Origin: Vibrio maritimus
GTDB lineage: Bacteria; Pseudomonadota; Gammaproteobacteria; Enterobacterales; Vibrionaceae
Assembly: GCF_021441885.1 (NCBI RefSeq)
Contig: NZ_CP090438.1
Coordinates: forward strand, 1,803,730 to 1,835,729
Reading direction: 5' to 3'
Length of the DNA stretch: 32,000 bases
Positions 3-25,116 of the stretch are shown piece after piece. Under the pieces are notes generated by a model. It ran no database searches. It saw only the letters and a list, made by a program, of their open reading frames with translations, and had not been told where the DNA came from. How positions within the stretch are numbered: the stretch's first letter is position 1; the number at the start of each line of letters is the position of its first letter. Both the position numbers and the translations under genes were made by a program.

Positions 3-1650
3 GGCACAGAAGGTGTGTTCACCGACAATGGTGATGGCACTTATACCTTTGCGCCAAACGAGAACTTTAATGGTGACGTAGACCTAAGCTTCTCAGTAAG
101 CGATGGTACGACCACCACAGAAGCTAATATTGATGTGACGGTTGAGTCGGTCAACGACATTCCTGTTGCCGGTTCTACCACATACTCAGTGAATGAAGAC
201 GGTATCATCACTATCTCTGACGACCAATTGCTTGCTAACTCAAGTGATGTGGAAGGCGAGGTGAGTGTCAGCGATGTTTCTTACTCGGGTACAGACGGCA
301 TCTTTACCGATAACGGTGATGGAACTTACAGCTTTGCGCCAAACGAAAACTTCAACGGTAACGTATCGCTTGATGTAACGGTTGTAGATGAAGACGGTGC
401 AACGGCAGAGACCACTGCAGGCATTGACGTCATTGCAGTCAACGATGCGCCAGTTTCAGGTGGCTTGGCTTACTCAGTTGACGAAGATGGTTCTATTACG
501 CTGACTCAAGATCAATTGCTATCGCAAGCAGGGGACGTCGATGGAGATGCACTAACTGCATCGAACCTCAGCGCGGGAGACAACGCAACAGTAACGGACA
601 ATGGCGATGGTAGCTTTACTATTACGCCAGATGCCAATTTCAACGGAGATATCGACCTTAACTTTGATATCTCTGATGGAGCAGAAACGATCGTTGCAAA
701 CGCTGATCTTACGGTCAATCCGGTAAATGACGCTGCAACATCGGATCCTGTGAGTCTTGCAGGTGTAGAAGACAACGCCATCATCATTTCTCAAGAAGAT
801 TTGTTGATGCATGCTCAAGACATTGATGGAGACGACCTAACCGCGAAAGATCTATCTATCGATGAATCGTTTGGTTCACTGGTTGATAATACTGATGGCA
901 CTTGGACATTCACACCAACGGAAAACTTCAACGGCGACGTTCCATTCAACTTTAACGTTGATGACGGTACTGAACTGACACCTGTTCAAGGCAACATCGA
1001 CATTGCTGCTGTTAACGATGAACCTCAGGCACCTGCAATCGAAATGCAGGGAGAAGAAGACCAAGTTATGGTCATCGATCCTGAATTCATCTTGGCACAA
1101 GCAAGTGATTTAGATGGCGATGAACTCACACTTGAAAGTATCAGTGTTAAGTCACCACAAAATGCGCAATTGCAACAGCAACCGGATGGTATGTATCACC
1201 TCGTTACTTCACAAGATTTCAACGGATTAGTTGAACTGGCTTACGAAATCACAGATGGAGAAGCGACGGCAGAAGGCTCGTTAAATGTTGATGTCATTCC
1301 TGTAAATGATGCTCCATTTGCAGATGGAAACGCCTTCTTAACGACCAATGAGGATGGGGCATTTACCTTCGATTCATCCGATATGCTCGACCTGTTTGGT
1401 GATATAGACACAGAAAGCCTAGTTATTTCACGAATCATCATGCCAGATGGTGAAGATGCCGGTGATCTGAATGACAACGGTGATGGTACCTGGACATTCA
1501 CACCAACGGGTGATTTCGCCGGAACGTCAGGGCTTCAAGTTATCGCTTCAGATGGAGAGTTTGAAACCTCACTCGATGTTCCTGTCTTTGTTCGTCCAGT
1601 CGCGGATGGAGCCGTTATTACAACAGATCATGACGGTCCATTGGTGTTCT
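3..1650 (+). repeat. Tandem ~285-nt (95-aa) domain repeats inside the adhesin gene
   Basis: DNA at 19-80 recurs with silent or near-silent changes at 304-365. The DNGDG..NFNG motif recurs near nt 18, 303, 591, 880, 1180 and 1455. Degenerate copies lie further on (~2080, ~2390, ~3030). Confidence 0.7.
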
Positions 1651-3389
1651 CTGAAGATTCAACCGGTCACTTAGGGCTTAACGTTGACCTCATTGATGAT
1701 TCGGAAATGCTCAGCAACTTGGTTATGACTGGTTTCCCTGTCGGGTTTGAAGTAAGCGATGGTGAAAATACTGTCATTATTACAGAGCCTGGACAAATGA
1801 TCAGTATCACCAACTGGAACATAGACGATCTACAGTTAACACCACCTGAAGACTTCTCTGGAAACTTCTTCGTAACTGTTAGTGCAACCACGGTTGACTA
1901 TGGTGACGAACCGTTGCCAGAACCAGAAGGTAGTGAAATTGCAGGCGACTTTGATACAACGCTAGGCGAACCAATTATCCTCACAGAAGAAGACTTGATT
2001 GGCATGGCACAAAACATCGACGCTAATGATGATGACGCTATCCAGATGGTTCACTTAGTTGATCCTAACCAAGGCTCGATGGTTGACAATGGTGACGGTA
2101 CCTGGACCTTTAGTCCGGCCGATGGCTTTACAGGCGAAGTAGACTTTGCGTATGTCGTTGAACGTGATGGTATTCTTCATGATGAACAAAGCACTATTGG
2201 TGTTCATGAAAATGAAGGACAAATCACCGATGGACCGCAGATTGAATCAATCGCTTCTGCTAGTGTGGAGGAAAGTGAACCACTTAACTTCACCGATAGC
2301 GATATGCTTAGCACCTTGAGCTCCGAATCTGGAGAAATGAGTATTGAATCCGTTACATTGCTTGAAGGTGAAGGGCTAATTGAATCTGACGGGCAGGGTG
2401 GTTATCAATTCACCCCAGCTGAAGGATACACTGGAAGTGCTCAAATCGGCTTTGTCGCGAGTGATGGTGAGAACAGTGTCGAAAGCCACTTCAATATCAA
2501 TGTAGACGAGCAAGAACCTTCAACGGTTGAAGCGCTAAGTCAAGCGGATGATGGTTCGGTTAGCATCAGTGGCGAACAAGTGCTTTCAAGTCTTGATGTC
2601 GCGGACGATGCAAGCTTATCTGATCTTAGCTATACAGGCGACGAAGGCGCACTAGTTCCTGCAGGAGACGATCAATGGACATTCTGGCCAGACTCTGAGT
2701 TTAGCGGTGATATCCCACTGGAAGCAACAGTTCAATCTGGTGGCGAAGAGCAAACTCTAACTACAACGATGAACGTTGAGACTGCACCTGAATCGACAGA
2801 AGCAACTCCTGAGCAAGCGACGGCTGAAACAGAAACTACGCAAGAATCTGTAGAAGCTTCAGCAAGCGACGATTCAGCCACATCAGATGACGAAGCCGCT
2901 GACATGACAGCTGCGCCAGGCGATGATGTCAGTCTATCAATTCCTGATGAGGTAGCTTCAGCAGAAGGTGTTGAACAGGTTGAACTATCGGGTATTCCAG
3001 ATGGTGCATCTGTGAGTGGAGCGCTAGATAATGGCGATGGTACTTACACGGTATCTGGTGACTTGTCACAACCGGTCACGATGTCGCTGGGTGATTCGTT
3101 TGAAGGTGAAGCAGAGATCTCGTTCCAAGGTGTGGATGAACTTGATACTCCAATAGATGGCGCTTCGGCAACAACAACAATTGAAGTTGATGACCAATAT
3201 GCGATGCAAGCGAGTAGCCAAACTCCAGCAGATACGTCAGGTCTACAAGATGCAGGTGGCAGCGGCGATTGGACATCTGGGGACAACACAGATACTGGTG
3301 TTGACTTTACAGATGACTCGGGAAGCTTCGGTCATGATGATCAATCATCAGGAGGCAGTCAACACGACTTTGACGATAACAACTTCTAG
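3..3389 (+). CDS. Giant repetitive adhesin-like exoprotein, C-terminal part (5' end lies upstream of the window)
   Basis: The frame is open from the window edge. Codons before the track's GTG at 15 (GTEG) continue the repeat, so 15 is not a real start. About 95-aa units carry DNGDGT(Y/W)(T/S)FxPxxNFNGD and VND(A/I/E)P motifs. The tail is acidic and T/E/S/D-rich, the stop is TAG at 3387-3389, and a hairpin terminator follows. Confidence 0.85.
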   Translation, partial: GTEGVFTDNGDGTYTFAPNENFNGDVDLSFSVSDGTTTTEANIDVTVESVNDIPVAGSTTYSVNEDGIITISDDQLLANSSDVEGEVSVSDVSYSGTDGIFTDNGDGTYSFAPNENFNGNVSLDVTVVDEDGATAETTAGIDVIAVNDAPVSGGLAYSVDEDGSITLTQDQLLSQAGDVDGDALTASNLSAGDNATVTDNGDGSFTITPDANFNGDIDLNFDISDGAETIVANADLTVNPVNDAATSDPVSLAGVEDNAIIISQEDLLMHAQDIDGDDLTAKDLSIDESFGSLVDNTDGTWTFTPTENFNGDVPFNFNVDDGTELTPVQGNIDIAAVNDEPQAPAIEMQGEEDQVMVIDPEFILAQASDLDGDELTLESISVKSPQNAQLQQQPDGMYHLVTSQDFNGLVELAYEITDGEATAEGSLNVDVIPVNDAPFADGNAFLTTNEDGAFTFDSSDMLDLFGDIDTESLVISRIIMPDGEDAGDLNDNGDGTWTFTPTGDFAGTSGLQVIASDGEFETSLDVPVFVRPVADGAVITTDHDGPLVFSEDSTGHLGLNVDLIDDSEMLSNLVMTGFPVGFEVSDGENTVIITEPGQMISITNWNIDDLQLTPPEDFSGNFFVTVSATTVDYGDEPLPEPEGSEIAGDFDTTLGEPIILTEEDLIGMAQNIDANDDDAIQMVHLVDPNQGSMVDNGDGTWTFSPADGFTGEVDFAYVVERDGILHDEQSTIGVHENEGQITDGPQIESIASASVEESEPLNFTDSDMLSTLSSESGEMSIESVTLLEGEGLIESDGQGGYQFTPAEGYTGSAQIGFVASDGENSVESHFNINVDEQEPSTVEALSQADDGSVSISGEQVLSSLDVADDASLSDLSYTGDEGALVPAGDDQWTFWPDSEFSGDIPLEATVQSGGEEQTLTTTMNVETAPESTEATPEQATAETETTQESVEASASDDSATSDDEAADMTAAPGDDVSLSIPDEVASAEGVEQVELSGIPDGASVSGALDNGDGTYTVSGDLSQPVTMSLGDSFEGEAEISFQGVDELDTPIDGASATTTIEVDDQYAMQASSQTPADTSGLQDAGGSGDWTSGDNTDTGVDFTDDSGSFGHDDQSSGGSQHDFDDNNF

Positions 3390-3597: not shown

Positions 3598-3625
3598 ATT
3601 TAACATAAGATAGATAATACGCACT
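3598..3625. other. dif: dif-type XerC/XerD recombination site, chromosome/prophage hybrid (left junction of the array)
   Basis: ATTTAACATAA-GATAGA-TAATACGCACT. The XerD arm is 11/11 to the remembered TTATGTTAAAT arm of E. coli and V. cholerae dif. The XerC arm is 10/11 to V. cholerae dif1 (AGTGCGCATTA). Identity with the later units begins at 3612, inside the 6-nt core. Confidence 0.8.
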
Positions 3626-3644: not shown

Positions 3645-5162
3645 TGTAATGTCACTATTTACCAAAGTTAAAATGTCTCTTTAGCTCGTGGTCACTAAGC
3701 TTTACTTACAACCAGCTAAGGATGCGTTTAAGATGCTAGTGACTATGAATGATTCTGATATCAATCGTTTTAAAGTAATCCAAGATGTTTGCGATCGTAG
3801 GATCCGACGAGTCGACGCGGCAGACATCCTTGATTTGAGTGTTCGCCAAGTTCAGAGGCTTATGAATCGCCTGAGGGAATTCGGTGCTGTAGGATTGACT
3901 CACCAAGCTCGAGGTAAGCCAAGTAATAACCGCTATCCTAGTGACTACCGAGACACAGTTTTAAAACTGATTCGTGATCACTATTCTGATTTTTCTCCAA
4001 CGCTTGCTAGAGAAAAACTATTGGAGTTACATAGCCTTCCAGTATCTAACGAGACCTTACGAAGTTGGATGATTGCAGATGGTTTATGGACGCCACATTC
4101 GCAACGCAAGCCTAAAGTTTACCAACCTCGCTACCGACGTGATTGTTTGGGCGAGCTCGTTCAAATTGATGGCTCTCACCATGATTGGTTTGAAGGACGC
4201 GCTGACAAATGTTGTTTACTGGTCTTTATCGATGATGCGACTGGCCGCCTGATGAATTTAAGGTTCAGCGAAACCGAATCGGCCTTTGATTACATGCTAA
4301 CAACGAGAGAATATCTTAATGAACACGGCAAACCCGTAGCGTTCTACAGCGATAAGCATTCGATTTTTCGGGTGAATCAGGAAAAGCAAAAACAAGTCGG
4401 TCAAACTCAATATGCCCGTGTATTAAAAGAGTTAGGTATTGAACTGATATGTGCGAACAGCTCTCAAGCTAAAGGTCGTGTGGAGCGAGTAAACTTGACG
4501 CTACAAGACCGACTCGTCAAAGAGATGCGCTTACAAGGAATTAACACCATCGAAGAAGCGAATGCTTGGCTTCCCTACTTCATTGCCGATTTCAATCGAC
4601 GCTTTGCTAAGCCGGCAATGTATCCGAAAAACATGCATCGAAAAGTGCGTGAAACCACACAGGAACTCGACGATATTTTCAGTTGGCAAGAAATACGTAA
4701 ACTCTCTAAATCGTTGACATTTCAATATGACAAAGTGGTTTATCTTATTGAGCCAAATGAAGAAAATACTCGCTTAGTTCACGAGCATGTCAAAGTCTTA
4801 GACTATCCCAACGGAGACATTGCGATTGTGTATGGCCACAGAAAGTTGGAATTCAAAATTTTCGATAAGCTTGAGCATGTTCAACAAACCCAAATTGTCG
4901 ACAACAAGCGATTAGGTCAAGTACTAAAGTTTGCTCAACAGCAGCAAGAAGAATTCGAGCGACAACAGAAACGCACACGGAGCAAAAAAGCCCCTAAACG
5001 CAGAGCTCAACAAAGAGCGCTTCAGGAACAACTAAGGGCTATAAACCCAGTTCTCATCACACCAGAAACCTTCAAAGCATCTAAGAGTAAAACCTAACTC
5101 ACCTACTCTATTTAGCTCATAAAGAGACATTTCTACCTGGGAGAAAAGAGGACATTTTAAAA
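3645..5162 (+). mobile_element. ISNCY-like (IS1202-group-like) insertion sequence, ends approximate
   Basis: A single DDE transposase gene is flanked by inverted motifs. A perfect 12-bp pair AATGTCTCTTTA (3672-3683) / TAAAGAGACATT (5120-5131) is flanked by an imperfect outer pair AATGTCACTATT (3648-3659) / AAAGAGGACATT (5145-5156). No target-site duplication could be identified. Confidence 0.7.
3688..5097 (+). CDS. DDE (rve/integrase-core) transposase, ISNCY-like
   Basis: N-terminal HTH (SVRQVQRLMNRL). Candidate catalytic residues lie in VQIDGSHH, AFYSDKHS and AKGRVERVN. The C-terminus is basic. The track start is GTG; ATG at 3733 (AAGGA upstream) or 3745 (MNDSD) is a more likely start. Confidence 0.85.
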   Translation: MVTKLYLQPAKDAFKMLVTMNDSDINRFKVIQDVCDRRIRRVDAADILDLSVRQVQRLMNRLREFGAVGLTHQARGKPSNNRYPSDYRDTVLKLIRDHYSDFSPTLAREKLLELHSLPVSNETLRSWMIADGLWTPHSQRKPKVYQPRYRRDCLGELVQIDGSHHDWFEGRADKCCLLVFIDDATGRLMNLRFSETESAFDYMLTTREYLNEHGKPVAFYSDKHSIFRVNQEKQKQVGQTQYARVLKELGIELICANSSQAKGRVERVNLTLQDRLVKEMRLQGINTIEEANAWLPYFIADFNRRFAKPAMYPKNMHRKVRETTQELDDIFSWQEIRKLSKSLTFQYDKVVYLIEPNEENTRLVHEHVKVLDYPNGDIAIVYGHRKLEFKIFDKLEHVQQTQIVDNKRLGQVLKFAQQQQEEFERQQKRTRSKKAPKRRAQQRALQEQLRAINPVLITPETFKASKSKT

Positions 5163-5310
5163 TGGGATTGACAAAATCGAATTTATCCAAAACAGCATTT
5201 TATCCTGTGGTTATCCCGTCAAACTTCACAAAATCCACTATCGAGACCCAAACCGGTCATGACTTTATACTGCCACCTCCGCTCTCAATGCGAAAAACTT
5301 AGCACAAAAT

Positions 5311-5348
5311 AAAATGACATACCAATCGACTCAGTATGTCATTTTTTT
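5311..5348. terminator. Bidirectional rho-independent terminator (end of phage cargo operon; also faces the IS)
   Basis: AAAATGACATAC (5311-5322) pairs with GTATGTCATTTT (5334-5345) around an 11-nt loop. A T7 run follows on the plus strand and TTTTATTTT on the minus strand. It lies 24 nt beyond the stop of the 169-aa gene. Confidence 0.75.
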
Positions 5349-5371
5349 ACTCTGTCCATTCTTTACAACGG

Positions 5372-5881
5372 TTACGGCTCGTCCAGTAACCCAAGCTTTT
5401 TAGCCACCTTTATTAGGTCGAATGGCTGTTGAAATTGAGCTTGTATCTTTTGCACTTCCAAAATGTCGAGTCCTGAAATTTCCGAACTATAATCCACGTT
5501 TTCAACAAGATTGAGACTACTTCGAATTTCATCCAAAGTCATACCATTAGGGTATTCTTCAGATCGAATGGTTATCTGTGGGTATTGGTCTAAAATCTCA
5601 ACCACTTTCAAACGTTCTTGTTCCGAGCACTTTTCTCTATTGTCCAAAGAAAGATATAGAAGCACCTTTTTTTTATCGTCATTTCCTAATGATGAAAACC
5701 AGCTTGTAGTTGGAAATCTTTTTGAAGCCGCTCTTGATTGAAGTAAACAATACTCAACTCGATTACCATAAGCTTGCATAGCATCAGACAAAGCTAAAGA
5801 ACGTAACTCATTAGAGCCAGCATAAGAAAAAGGTAAGAAACACATTAAAAATAAGCAGGTTAAACCTTTACAAAGCCGCAT
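5372..5881 (-). CDS. Secreted 169-aa cargo protein, function unknown
   Basis: The N-terminal signal peptide is MRLCKGLTCLFLMCFLPFSYA/GS. GGAGG lies upstream. It overlaps the 113-aa gene by 14 nt and is the last gene before the terminator. I recognise no family. Confidence 0.75.
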   Translation of the reverse strand: MRLCKGLTCLFLMCFLPFSYAGSNELRSLALSDAMQAYGNRVEYCLLQSRAASKRFPTTSWFSSLGNDDKKKVLLYLSLDNREKCSEQERLKVVEILDQYPQITIRSEEYPNGMTLDEIRSSLNLVENVDYSSEISGLDILEVQKIQAQFQQPFDLIKVAKKLGLLDEP

Positions 5882-6209
5882 TTGATACGCACCTCCAAAA
5901 TTCGCCCTCAGCAGTATAACTACCAGTTCTTAAGCTCATGGTTTCCGCAATAGAAAATACACGCCCTTTTGCAGTTTTATTAATAGCGTTCAGAGTTTTA
6001 CTAAACTCAACCCAATCATAGCCAGCTATACTCAGCATGGTTTGACTCGTATTTGCTTTACCAAGAAACAAATCAAACAATGGAACGGTGCTCGTTGCAA
6101 CTGCTAGCATGTTCGCCCTATCTACGATATCTCTAATCTCATCAACTGCCTCTATACTTTCACGAGACAATTTTAAATTATCAATCCGACAATACCCTAC
6201 ATTTGCCAT
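5868..6209 (-). CDS. 113-aa soluble cargo protein, function unknown
   Basis: ATG start with AAGGG 8-9 nt upstream. No TM segment or signal peptide. It is probably translationally coupled to the 169-aa gene. I recognise no family. Confidence 0.7.
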   Translation of the reverse strand: MANVGYCRIDNLKLSRESIEAVDEIRDIVDRANMLAVATSTVPLFDLFLGKANTSQTMLSIAGYDWVEFSKTLNAINKTAKGRVFSIAETMSLRTGSYTAEGEFWRCVSNAAL

Positions 6210-6258
6210 TTATTAAGCCCTTATGAAACCAATATAGTATCGTAAATCTTACTATACA

Positions 6259-6414
6259 CTAAGAAGCCTTTTCTAATCTCCTCTCAAGCTCTCGAATAAC
6301 ACGGCAAAGCTCAACAATTCGCTCAAACATTAAAGACGAAGGCTCACGTTCGTAAGCCTCCATAGCTAAAGCTAATTCATCACGCAAACGAGATAAAGAA
6401 AAATCCAAAACCAT
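6259..6414 (-). CDS. 51-aa helical small protein (below the ORF-track cutoff)
   Basis: Hand translation: MVLDFSLSRLRDELALAMEAYEREPSSLMFERIVELCRVIRELERRLEKAS. The ATG directly abuts the zot-like TAG (6415-6417), and GGTGGTG lies upstream. Confidence 0.5.
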   Translation of the reverse strand: MVLDFSLSRLRDELALAMEAYEREPSSLMFERIVELCRVIRELERRLEKAS

Positions 6415-7590
6415 CTAGTCACCACCAAACGCCGATGAAAAAGACGAAGCTAAATCAATATTAGGATGTTGGCCTGTAGGCCGTTCACCCTCGCAGTAAA
6501 CGAAATCTGAATAGCCCTCAAACTTCAATTCAACCAAACAAGGACCCATTACCGCCACATCATAGCCTGCCATATATAAGTCCTGAAGCTTCAAGGGGAA
6601 TTCATAACGAGATTTATTCACTGCCTTAAAATAAACCTCTGTTTGTCGATGCAAACGCCCTCTATCGTCTTTGTAGAACGAATCAGACGACCCTGTGATA
6701 GCCAGTTGAAGTTTACCAAATGGATGCACTGTATCAGCCTTACGCTGCCTAGAAGACGGTCTTTTCTTCTCTGGCTCTGAATTTTGCTTATCTTCCACTA
6801 CGACACGCTTAGATTCTACTACGGGCTCAGGCTCTGATTTGTTGCCAAACAACGCTAAACCACTCGTTATAGACATAGGCAACGCAATGATAATTGCAGG
6901 GATACCTACCCAGAAATACCAACGCTTCCAGATAGGCTTAATGTCACTAGCGTGAGCTTCATTCACCGATTGGTCAGATTGAGTATGCGAAGTATAGAAC
7001 GGGAAAAATCGAGGCTTATATGTTCGAACGTTGGTGTTCAACTCAGCAGGCCGACCCTCAGCACCGTCTAATACTTTTTGCGTATAAGTTTTATCAGACC
7101 CAGCTGCGGAATGCTTCGACACTCGATACTGAATTTGTATCATTGCTCGAACATCTTTGTGAAGTTTTCCAAGGCTTTGAGTCATTAACAAAATATCATG
7201 GCCATAATGACGGTGCATCGACATATATTCCAATACATCCGCCAAATTCTCAGATGCTTTCTTGCCTCTGCCTTGACTAGGTAAAACAAAGTGACATTCA
7301 TCAATGACGAACAATGCACCAACGCCCTCGTCATTCTTCCACTCGTCAGACGTAAAACAATCCTTTGTAGAGAAAGCTTTGACCGCCCCAACCTCACGGG
7401 AATAGCTATCTTCTCGAACCTCGATAAGATCTAATATTTCCTTGCCAAAAACCGATTCGAAATGATCTAAATTTAAAGGCACATTAGTGATAACTTTGCG
7501 CCCTTCCTTAAGCGCAGGAATGATGTGATACACCACAGATTCGTAAGATTTACCCGAACCTGGTCTACCCACGATAATGTTAATTGGCAT
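6415..7590 (-). CDS. Zot/pI-family inovirus assembly ATPase
   Basis: Walker A GRPGSGKS at residues 8-15 and Walker B LFVIDECH. A central TM segment (WYFWVGIPAIIIALPMSITSGLALF) has a C-terminal domain beyond it. The SD is GGGGGTG. The position follows the pVI-like gene, as in Ff and CTXphi. Confidence 0.9.
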   Translation of the reverse strand: MPINIIVGRPGSGKSYESVVYHIIPALKEGRKVITNVPLNLDHFESVFGKEILDLIEVREDSYSREVGAVKAFSTKDCFTSDEWKNDEGVGALFVIDECHFVLPSQGRGKKASENLADVLEYMSMHRHYGHDILLMTQSLGKLHKDVRAMIQIQYRVSKHSAAGSDKTYTQKVLDGAEGRPAELNTNVRTYKPRFFPFYTSHTQSDQSVNEAHASDIKPIWKRWYFWVGIPAIIIALPMSITSGLALFGNKSEPEPVVESKRVVVEDKQNSEPEKKRPSSRQRKADTVHPFGKLQLAITGSSDSFYKDDRGRLHRQTEVYFKAVNKSRYEFPLKLQDLYMAGYDVAVMGPCLVELKFEGYSDFVYCEGERPTGQHPNIDLASSFSSAFGGD

Positions 7591-7600
7591 CAGTCACCCC

Positions 7601-7918
7601 CTAAGAACCTAAACGTGTAAACGGAATAATCTGCAAACCTAGACGAATCAAGATTGCAGACACGATAATTACACTTGCTTCATTCACGCCCACTAAAGCC
7701 ATGATAGATTTTGCTTCGTCAGGAATCAGGTCGATATATTGAATCACGTTCAAGGCCGAAAACGCCGAACCAAAACCATTGATAGCAACTAAAGCTATCG
7801 ATAACACGCTATCAAAAAAGAATATGCCAATATCTTTCAACAAATCGTAGAGCGACAATAAAATAGACAAGCAAAAGTTAACAAAGTCATTCCAACGCTC
7901 AGCAAACCAATCCAACAT
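7601..7918 (-). CDS. pVI-like minor coat / membrane protein (Ace position)
   Basis: A hydrophobic multi-TM ~105-aa protein between the pIII-like and pI-like genes. The track start at 7930 is TTG. ATG at 7918 has GGAGG 5 nt upstream and lies 1 nt after the pIII-like stop codon. Confidence 0.75.
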   Translation of the reverse strand: MLDWFAERWNDFVNFCLSILLSLYDLLKDIGIFFFDSVLSIALVAINGFGSAFSALNVIQYIDLIPDEAKSIMALVGVNEASVIIVSAILIRLGLQIIPFTRLGS

Positions 7919-14722: not shown

Positions 14723-15232
14723 TTACGGCTCGTCCAGTAACCCAAGCTTTTTAGCCACCTTTATTAGGTCGAATGGCTGTTGAAATTGAGCTTGTATCTT
14801 TTGCACTTCCAAAATGTCGAGTCCTGAAATTTCCGAACTATAATCCACGTTTTCAACAAGATTGAGACTACTTCGAATTTCATCCAAAGTCATACCATTA
14901 GGGTATTCTTCAGATCGAATGGTTATCTGTGGGTATTGGTCTAAAATCTCAACCACTTTCAAACGTTCTTGTTCCGAGCACTTTTCTCTATTGTCCAAAG
15001 AAAGATATAGAAGCACCTTTTTTTTATCGTCATTTCCTAATGATGAAAACCAGCTTGTAGTTGGAAATCTTTTTGAAGCCGCTCTTGATTGAAGTAAACA
15101 ATACTCAACTCGATTACCATAAGCTTGCATAGCATCAGACAAAGCTAAAGAACGTAACTCATTAGAGCCAGCATAAGAAAAAGGTAAGAAACACATTAAA
15201 AATAAGCAGGTTAAACCTTTACAAAGCCGCAT
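14723..15232 (-). CDS. Secreted 169-aa cargo protein (copy 2)
   Basis: Translation identical to copy 1. Confidence 0.75.
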   Translation of the reverse strand: MRLCKGLTCLFLMCFLPFSYAGSNELRSLALSDAMQAYGNRVEYCLLQSRAASKRFPTTSWFSSLGNDDKKKVLLYLSLDNREKCSEQERLKVVEILDQYPQITIRSEEYPNGMTLDEIRSSLNLVENVDYSSEISGLDILEVQKIQAQFQQPFDLIKVAKKLGLLDEP

Positions 15233-15560
15233 TTGATACGCACCTCCAAAATTCGCCCTCAGCAGTATAACTACCAGTTCTTAAGCTCATGGTTTCCGCA
15301 ATAGAAAATACACGCCCTTTTGCAGTTTTATTAATAGCGTTCAGAGTTTTACTAAACTCAACCCAATCATAGCCAGCTATACTCAGCATGGTTTGACTCG
15401 TATTTGCTTTACCAAGAAACAAATCAAACAATGGAACGGTGCTCGTTGCAACTGCTAGCATGTTCGCCCTATCTACGATATCTCTAATCTCATCAACTGC
15501 CTCTATACTTTCACGAGACAATTTTAAATTATCAATCCGACAATACCCTACATTTGCCAT
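15219..15560 (-). CDS. 113-aa cargo protein (copy 2)
   Basis: Translation identical to copy 1. Confidence 0.7.
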   Translation of the reverse strand: MANVGYCRIDNLKLSRESIEAVDEIRDIVDRANMLAVATSTVPLFDLFLGKANTSQTMLSIAGYDWVEFSKTLNAINKTAKGRVFSIAETMSLRTGSYTAEGEFWRCVSNAAL

Positions 15561-15609
15561 TTATTAAGCCCTTATGAAACCAATATAGTATCGTAAATCT
15601 TACTATACA

Positions 15610-15765
15610 CTAAGAAGCCTTTTCTAATCTCCTCTCAAGCTCTCGAATAACACGGCAAAGCTCAACAATTCGCTCAAACATTAAAGACGAAGGCTCACGT
15701 TCGTAAGCCTCCATAGCTAAAGCTAATTCATCACGCAAACGAGATAAAGAAAAATCCAAAACCAT
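15610..15765 (-). CDS. 51-aa helical small protein (copy 2)
   Basis: Copy 1 +9351; DNA checked identical by eye. Confidence 0.5.
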   Translation of the reverse strand: MVLDFSLSRLRDELALAMEAYEREPSSLMFERIVELCRVIRELERRLEKAS

Positions 15766-24073: not shown

Positions 24074-24583
24074 TTACGGCTCGTCCAGTAACCCAAGCTT
24101 TTTAGCCACCTTTATTAGGTCGAATGGCTGTTGAAATTGAGCTTGTATCTTTTGCACTTCCAAAATGTCGAGTCCTGAAATTTCCGAACTATAATCCACG
24201 TTTTCAACAAGATTGAGACTACTTCGAATTTCATCCAAAGTCATACCATTAGGGTATTCTTCAGATCGAATGGTTATCTGTGGGTATTGGTCTAAAATCT
24301 CAACCACTTTCAAACGTTCTTGTTCCGAGCACTTTTCTCTATTGTCCAAAGAAAGATATAGAAGCACCTTTTTTTTATCGTCATTTCCTAATGATGAAAA
24401 CCAGCTTGTAGTTGGAAATCTTTTTGAAGCCGCTCTTGATTGAAGTAAACAATACTCAACTCGATTACCATAAGCTTGCATAGCATCAGACAAAGCTAAA
24501 GAACGTAACTCATTAGAGCCAGCATAAGAAAAAGGTAAGAAACACATTAAAAATAAGCAGGTTAAACCTTTACAAAGCCGCAT
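24074..24583 (-). CDS. Secreted 169-aa cargo protein (copy 3)
   Basis: Translation identical to copy 1. Confidence 0.75.
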   Translation of the reverse strand: MRLCKGLTCLFLMCFLPFSYAGSNELRSLALSDAMQAYGNRVEYCLLQSRAASKRFPTTSWFSSLGNDDKKKVLLYLSLDNREKCSEQERLKVVEILDQYPQITIRSEEYPNGMTLDEIRSSLNLVENVDYSSEISGLDILEVQKIQAQFQQPFDLIKVAKKLGLLDEP

Positions 24584-24911
24584 TTGATACGCACCTCCAA
24601 AATTCGCCCTCAGCAGTATAACTACCAGTTCTTAAGCTCATGGTTTCCGCAATAGAAAATACACGCCCTTTTGCAGTTTTATTAATAGCGTTCAGAGTTT
24701 TACTAAACTCAACCCAATCATAGCCAGCTATACTCAGCATGGTTTGACTCGTATTTGCTTTACCAAGAAACAAATCAAACAATGGAACGGTGCTCGTTGC
24801 AACTGCTAGCATGTTCGCCCTATCTACGATATCTCTAATCTCATCAACTGCCTCTATACTTTCACGAGACAATTTTAAATTATCAATCCGACAATACCCT
24901 ACATTTGCCAT
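24570..24911 (-). CDS. 113-aa cargo protein (copy 3)
   Basis: Translation identical to copy 1. Confidence 0.7.
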   Translation of the reverse strand: MANVGYCRIDNLKLSRESIEAVDEIRDIVDRANMLAVATSTVPLFDLFLGKANTSQTMLSIAGYDWVEFSKTLNAINKTAKGRVFSIAETMSLRTGSYTAEGEFWRCVSNAAL

Positions 24912-24960
24912 TTATTAAGCCCTTATGAAACCAATATAGTATCGTAAATCTTACTATACA

Positions 24961-25116
24961 CTAAGAAGCCTTTTCTAATCTCCTCTCAAGCTCTCGAATA
25001 ACACGGCAAAGCTCAACAATTCGCTCAAACATTAAAGACGAAGGCTCACGTTCGTAAGCCTCCATAGCTAAAGCTAATTCATCACGCAAACGAGATAAAG
25101 AAAAATCCAAAACCAT
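24961..25116 (-). CDS. 51-aa helical small protein (copy 3)
   Basis: Copy 1 +18702. Confidence 0.5.
   Translation of the reverse strand: MVLDFSLSRLRDELALAMEAYEREPSSLMFERIVELCRVIRELERRLEKAS

Follow-up and report, generated by a model that had tools for sequence, protein, structure and literature searches.

In a 32,000-nt stretch of Vibrio maritimus DNA, called the window below, inovirus prophages carry behind their zot gene, in the slot that holds ctxAB in CTXphi, a mobile cassette of two overlapping genes, here named A and B. A encodes a leaderless helical protein of 113 amino acids (aa) and B a Sec-exported helical protein of 169 aa. The cassette recurs in about 20 loci, comprising dif-integrated XafT elements, a Mu-like phage, Vibrio plasmids, and chromosomal variable regions, and a distant relative of A forms the C-terminal tip of an Rhs-type protein with a relative of B encoded directly downstream. 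We estimate at roughly one half the probability that A is an envelope-acting toxin and B an exported immunity protein, carried as cargo in the inovirus slot; within this reading we infer the toxicity of A, an interaction between A and B, an envelope target, and a delivery route.

The cargo behind zot

An initial annotation, made from the DNA alone, had described a three-gene module located after zot and before the operon terminator, in the position equivalent to ctxAB, and both the coordinates of the three open reading frames (ORFs) and the hairpin behind them agree with this placement (Table 1). Genes A and B overlap by 14 nt, with a GGAGG located 10 nt upstream of the ATG of B, which is consistent with the co-translation proposed at that time, and we call the two genes translationally coupled. 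The N-terminus of B (MRLCKGLTCLFLMCFLPFSYA, followed by GS) has the make-up of a Sec signal peptide, with a charged part, a hydrophobic part, and S-Y-A, in line with the export predicted for this protein.

The third member of the proposed module, a 51-codon ORF, stands apart from the other two. Its ATG abuts the zot stop codon, as had been noted (the sequence reads gacTAGATG), and it lies in the reading frame of zot, separated from it by one TAG (6412-6417). Nevertheless, this ORF is missing from every other A-B cassette, and the supposed three-gene module is actually a mobile two-gene cassette beside an orphan ORF. No homologue of the 51-aa product was found in the phage collection, in the viral contigs, or in any retrieved locus, and no family match was obtained in Pfam, PHROGs, PADLOC, or NCBIfam. 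Because the collections searched contain no homologue, the ORF cannot be verified as a gene, and it may not be one. We also observe that read-through of the TAG would extend Zot by 52 residues.

The distinction drawn initially between this cargo and the morphogenesis genes of inoviruses was borne out, as none of the three ORFs has a match in Pfam or PHROGs. Relatives carry other genes or nothing in the same slot, such as the "distinctive region" of VGJphi and a 68-aa ORF in PQ189300. Close phage relatives (L016 and L017), whose Zot is about 80% identical, stop exactly at the zot stop codon and are uninformative on the slot, and a metagenome scan with Zot as the query returned no matches.

Conservation of the A-B pair

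Homologues of A in Vibrio show 42-58% identity, and all contigs with such a homologue have directly after it, with an overlap of a few codons, a gene for a protein of 143-156 aa, 36-40% identical to the B protein of the window. Over all the genes compared downstream of A homologues, identity to B is 36-49%. B had at first appeared to be a singleton, since its relatives had escaped a first single-sequence (word-indexed) search; once translated and aligned, the genes that follow the A homologues proved to be homologous to it. A search with a B profile gave 22 B-family clusters, and an exhaustive HMMER search with an A profile gave 153 cluster representatives (clusters defined at 50% identity), with sizes of 48-144 aa for all but two of the 150 matches listed; proteins of the family typically have 105-125 aa. 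The A family is found in Vibrio, in many species of Aeromonas, and in Pseudoalteromonas, Salinivibrio, and Halopseudomonas. Two giant proteins matched by the A profile (P0075 and P0076) were rejected as members, being repeat adhesins whose matches are compositional. A literature search for the V. coralliilyticus homologues by locus tag found no papers.

The gene order is highly conserved, as B comes after A, either overlapping its stop codon or starting at most 65 nt away, in all of the loci examined but one, the distant members included. A comparison of two Vibrio loci revealed 17 synonymous and 0 non-synonymous differences in A and a dN/dS of 0.21 in B, which therefore evolves faster than A. 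This purifying selection on both A and B indicates that both are functional genes. A few degraded copies of the cassette were also found, in V. aerogenes, in V. coralliilyticus ATCC BAA-450, and on plasmid pVH2 of V. harveyi.

The sole exception to the A-then-B order is a locus of V. diazotrophicus (L007-L011, ~8591-10027), where B occurs without A, flanked by the gene of an exported ankyrin-repeat protein and by a 132-aa gene of no known family. This B is the nearest to the B of the window, with 47-49% identity and a common 14-residue insertion. The arrangement looks like an orphan-immunity locus. Locus L021 has a second copy of A after B, and an extra B-family ORF was observed on a conjugative plasmid of V. 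nigripulchritudo (L082 4508-5020, minus strand), beside a gene for an AHH-domain toxin. Orphans and arrays of this kind are typical of immunity genes.

The carriers of the cassette are of several kinds. Dif-integrated elements with A-B (L001-4, L014, and L015) occur in V. europaeus, V. coralliilyticus, and V. aquaticus, and have a dif site (1-2 mismatches) directly before a gene of the DUF3653 (XafT) type and an M15 endolysin gene at the far end, DUF3653 being the XafT domain (PMC6744903). In the Mu-like tailed phage (L005), A-B is divergently oriented and located between a methylase gene and the Mu F/portal genes. The chromosomal variable sites (L020-L029) belong to Aeromonas, Pseudoalteromonas, V. 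zhugei, and others, and the Vibrio plasmids are represented by L081-L085. On two V. alginolyticus plasmids (L081/L083, 2580-2902), A-B has a PAAR gene cluster and an amidase gene at a distance of about 5 kb, and in V. aerogenes a vgrG gene lies about 7.6 kb from the cassette.

An A-family domain at the tip of an Rhs-type protein

One distant match of the A family (P0181, in locus L030) does not stand as a gene of its own: its reading frame continues to the edge of the contig, and the 40 residues with which it starts (…GGNFANGAVSGAFVHMFNAEA) stand before the A-like domain. A search with the P0181 protein showed that this 40-residue segment is common to 50 metagenome loci, where it constitutes the C-terminal end of proteins with SpvB, FG-GAP, and RHS-repeat regions, which are approximately 2,230-2,270 aa long (up to 2271 aa). 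The segment is a glycine-rich pre-toxin junction, ending in ...GAFVHMFNAE, after which each locus has a different C-terminal tip (L032-L080); its match to Pfam PT-VENN is below threshold (E 0.29). Locus L033, from the same sample as L030, has an identical junction and a YD-shell segment before it. These SpvB/FG-GAP/Rhs proteins with variable tips have a polymorphic Rhs-type toxin architecture.

The tip in L030 belongs to the A family (hhalign probability 98.8%, E 1e-16; 73.7 bits with a local HMM), and its stop codon is overlapped by a gene whose product has a signal peptide and belongs to the B family (probability 94.8%, E 5e-8). In Rhs and other polymorphic toxins, toxicity resides in the variable tip, and immunity is encoded by the gene downstream. 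Taken with this knowledge, an A-family tip followed by a B-family gene suggests that A is the toxin and B the immunity protein, and the export of the immunity protein suggests that the target is reached from the periplasm.

Protein features of A and B

In all 11 of the 11 loci checked, B has an export signal, either a signal peptide or a lipoprotein-like N-terminus, and exactly two cysteines in the mature domain, 36-41 residues apart, which correspond to C45 and C85 in the window. The C-terminal end of B carries a conserved PF(D/N)...LG motif. A has no signal peptide and, in 111 of the 118 members, has exactly one cysteine at most 14 residues from each terminus and none elsewhere; in the window these are C7 and C107. 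The retention of these terminal cysteines in a leaderless protein suggests that A functions in an oxidizing compartment. The central segment of A reaches a median best 19-residue Kyte-Doolittle hydropathy of 1.35, and 25% of the members reach 1.6, so that A is not convincing as a membrane protein at the level of its sequence.

The AF2 models are of moderate confidence; that of B (pLDDT 79) is all-helical, and that of A (pLDDT 77) shows an N-terminal beta-hairpin followed by helices. The initial statement that these proteins belong to no recognized family holds after profile and structure searches, which gave no named match for A or B. Indeed, Pfam, PHROGs, NCBIfam, and PADLOC contain no significant match to any of the three window proteins or of about 130 family members, and PADLOC-DB 2.0 returned no match for the window proteins and only two chance-level matches (E 0.004 and 0.009) for homologues. 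PDB sequence profiles gave no match for A or B, Pfam revealed no type VI secretion system (T6SS) effector marker domain in either, and the best Foldseek match of B (the only one of the two compared) in BFVD had an E of 0.6.

Proposed toxin and immunity roles, and the alternatives

Under the reading that we favor, A would be a small toxin domain which attacks the cell envelope from the periplasmic side, and B would be the cognate immunity protein, which Sec would export, with cleavage after Ala21 and a stabilizing C45-C85 disulfide. In a lysogen, both genes would be expressed at the 3' end of the zot operon by read-through, with their translation coupled and their dosage amplified by the tandem array. 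B would then shield the periplasm of the lysogen, and A would be harmless in the cytoplasm unless delivered to neighboring cells, for instance by a T6SS. Type VI secretion is the obvious candidate for delivery, given the host genera and an immunity protein predicted to be in the periplasm; Tse1/Tsi1 and Ssp6/Sip6 are examples of type VI effector-immunity pairs in which immunity is periplasmic. The cassette would favor lysogens over non-lysogens, or at least immunize them against attackers with the same toxin.

Several observations weigh against this reading. The fusion to an Rhs protein is a single case, as an Rhs tip was found in L030 only, in a distant member which lacks the terminal cysteines, and A in the window and all of the approximately 150 cluster representatives are stand-alone small genes. 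No hcp, vgrG, PAAR, or adaptor gene is adjacent to the approximately 17 stand-alone loci, so that no delivery route is evident. Foldseek comparison with the PDB gave best E values of 0.35 for B and 0.94 for A, with no known toxin fold or motif. Finally, several loci adjoin anti-phage systems, bona fide or candidate: its immediate neighbors include DRT5 (7e-206), PDC-S06 (9e-220), an AAA_21 ATPase, and a TIR effector accompanied by a HEPN protein, and AbiH and ParE lie close to the cassette. A role in defense fits these neighborhoods equally well.

Defense or superinfection exclusion, already a candidate in the initial annotation, is the main rival and a live one, even if we consider it rather unlikely. 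Here, A-B would act against phages at the level of the envelope, with periplasmic B sensing or blocking incoming phage or pilus/Tol-dependent entry and A being a cytoplasmic or membrane-associated effector or regulator. In addition to the neighboring genes, this alternative draws on the carriers, which are three unrelated kinds of phage or Xer-dependent element, on the moderately hydrophobic central helix of A, and on the enrichment of the inovirus hypervariable slot for defense genes in two surveys (PMC12715192, PMC11630473). However, no PADLOC model fits A or B, and closeness to defense genes is equally typical of toxin-immunity modules in variable regions. A defense role also leaves unexplained the A-family Rhs tip with its downstream B-family gene, as well as the orphan B near an AHH toxin.

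An addiction module of the toxin-antitoxin (TA) type, in which B would be a labile neutralizer of A and the pair would stabilize the prophage or mobile element, is very unlikely. Two small coupled genes on prophages, plasmids, and islands, and a Hok/Gef gene which adjoins the cassette on V. harveyi pVH2, would suit such a module. Nevertheless, the signal peptide of B in all loci places the two products in different compartments, which is incompatible with classical type II neutralization, no DNA-binding or known toxin or antitoxin domain was found in A or B with Pfam and NCBIfam, and B occurs alone in V. diazotrophicus. The small toxin-antitoxin-like pair suggested at the outset was the closest candidate in spirit, with the qualification that the evidence favors a leaderless toxin and an exported immunity protein over a cytoplasmic TA pair.

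Also very unlikely is that B is a secreted host-interaction or virulence factor comparable to cholera toxin, with A as its cytoplasmic partner or chaperone: the position equivalent to ctxAB, the high copy number, and the combination of a Sec signal peptide with a disulfide, as in type II-secreted toxins, would be in keeping with it, but the pair is widespread at chromosomal variable sites of marine bacteria with a free-living habit (Vibrio, Aeromonas, Pseudoalteromonas, Salinivibrio, and Halopseudomonas), resembles no enterotoxin or effector family, and has an Rhs-tip context which marks A, not B, as the active partner. This candidate of the initial annotation thus gives way to a pair of the polymorphic-toxin type. 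Overall, the original observation is confirmed and its interpretation is partly supported.

The prophage array

The window contains three full prophage units of 9351 bp in head-to-tail orientation and the initial 336 nt of a fourth, with 0 mismatches between the copies, i.e., 100% identity over 28,389 nt (3612-32000) when the full units and the partial fourth are compared. The cargo is thus present in three identical copies within the window, in accordance with the three or more copies reported initially. Such identity indicates either a very recent amplification, or homogenization, or an effect of the assembly. Each unit is an inovirus prophage with its genes read on the minus strand, in the order pII, ssDNA-binding protein, small coat genes, a 564-aa pIII-like gene, a pVI/Ace-like gene, and Zot/pI. 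The main features are listed in Table 1.

Table 1 Features of the prophage unit and its cargo, in window coordinates.
Feature	Position	Strand	Evidence
Gene B, 169 aa, Sec-exported helical protein, putative immunity protein	5372-5881	-	
Gene A, 113 aa, leaderless helical protein, putative toxin domain	5868-6209	-	
51-codon ORF, unverified as a gene, outside the A-B cassette	6259-6414	-	
Cargo ORFs, copy 1	5372-6414	-	ORF list
Cargo ORFs, copy 2, identical	14723-15765	-	0 mismatches between copies
Cargo ORFs, copy 3, identical	24074-25116	-	0 mismatches between copies
zot/pI assembly ATPase, upstream limit of the cargo slot	6415-7590	-	Pfam Zot 7e-32; phrog_197 1e-75
Replication protein pII	10490-11812	-	Phage_CRI 1.5e-53
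Terminator-like hairpin ending the zot-cargo transcription unit	5311-5345	-	15-bp stem and T-run; inverted repeat I5
Insertion sequence of the ISNCY family, separating the cargo terminator from the dif junction	3655-5148	+	NCBIfam transpos_ISNCY_2, 5e-153
dif-like site, left junction of the array	3598-3625	-	3 mismatches to V. cholerae dif1; repeat homology from 3612

The terminator-like hairpin is located just past the stop codon of the 169-aa gene, and a scan of the minus strand from 5100 to 7700 gave no sigma-70-like site. As no promoter-like site was found in the region, read-through from zot is the simplest model for the expression of the cargo, which would then be co-transcribed with zot. 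The insertion sequence (IS) behind the terminator consists of a transposase gene (3688-5097) and imperfect terminal inverted repeats (3655-3683 and 5120-5148), and its presence at the same offset in every unit indicates that it was already inside the unit before the amplification.

The array begins at a dif-like site, and the phage is accordingly a Xer-dependent integrative element. Inside each unit (12795-12985), two inverted dif-like half-sites, approximately 120 nt apart, pair in the gene-sense single strand to form a long bulged hairpin (z = -2.1), and these paired half-sites resemble the single-stranded attP of CTXphi. Regarding XafT/DUF3653, three DUF3653 proteins compared with the window by tblastn yielded nothing beyond a 27-aa match (E = 1.0), and Pfam gave no DUF3653 match among the window proteins scanned. 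With no XafT/DUF3653 homologue, this prophage falls outside both the published XafT-positive pHVR class and the ctxAB class. A packaging or morphogenesis factor like PSB15, which is a DUF3653 protein (bioRxiv 10.1101/2024.03.19.585677), was also considered and rejected, given the lack of a DUF3653 match in the window.

Two other features of the window were observed. The regulatory end of the prophage, past the pII gene and a divergent 61-aa gene (phrog_2503), contains a gene for an 82-aa HU/IHF-like DNA-binding protein (12509-12757, minus strand; Pfam Bac_DNA_binding 6e-15). Outside the array, positions 15-3389 (plus strand) hold the 3' portion of a gene for a giant acidic protein, which consists of repeats and has adhesin-like tandem domains; this portion encodes at least 1124 aa and ends about 200 nt short of the dif-like site.

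Comparison with known systems

The post-zot region is an accessory, hypervariable hot spot, shared with double jelly-roll prophages (PMC12715192, PMC11630473), and the pHVR-bearing class CTX-I is defined by XafT (PMC12715192). The cargo slot of V. maritimus resembles the pHVR of Vibrio inoviruses and dif-type double jelly-roll prophages in its position between zot/pI and the attachment end, in its size (approximately 1 kb of genes plus an IS), and in its content, which likewise varies among relatives, and A-B is common to XafT-bearing dif elements, a tailed phage, and chromosomes. The V. maritimus prophage differs from this class by the absence of XafT/DUF3653 and by a CTXphi-like attachment region, and the A-B cassette is not among the named systems. 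Cargo in the post-zot slot is therefore known biology, and what is new is the identity of the A-B cargo.

With polymorphic toxin modules, A-B shares the order of a putative toxin gene before a putative immunity gene, the coupled translation, a leaderless first product, and an exported second one; orphan copies of the immunity gene and mobile elements likewise occur in both, and one A-family member is a true Rhs tip. However, A is stand-alone, about 110 aa long, with its own start codon and no PAAR, VgrG, Hcp, MIX, or Rhs part, no secretion genes stand beside A-B, and neither family is present in the Pfam Ntox/Imm catalogue or in the other libraries searched. Type II TA systems have two cytoplasmic products, of which the antitoxin binds the toxin and usually also DNA, whereas B carries an export signal in every locus here.

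The cassette also shares several features with ctxAB of CTXphi, namely the 3' end of the zot transcription unit, a dif-integrated Vibrio inovirus, two coupled genes, and tandem copies. Nevertheless, there is no similarity in sequence or fold, only one signal peptide is present among A and B, and the cassette is also common outside phages. A-B probably represents a new family of toxin-immunity pairs and not a virulence factor. It is a tentative proposal, which we hold at less than even odds, that the slot of cholera toxin is occupied here by an undescribed interbacterial toxin targeting the envelope with its exported immunity protein, or else by a new anti-phage system acting at the envelope.

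Significance

The cargo in the post-zot slot determines the effect of a filamentous prophage on its host, with cholera toxin as the classic case. The A-B cassette, an unnamed family, moves among inoviruses, dif elements, a Mu-like phage, plasmids, and the chromosomes of several marine gammaproteobacterial genera. If A-B is a defense system, it would be of a new kind, including a periplasmic component. If A and B are toxin and immunity protein, they would represent a new family of toxin tips and a new family of exported immunity proteins, and would clearly illustrate how a chronic, non-lytic phage can arm its host for competition with other bacteria. Lysogens would then kill, or resist, their non-lysogenic neighbors, which would amount to a phage-imposed kin discrimination that selects for the prophage.

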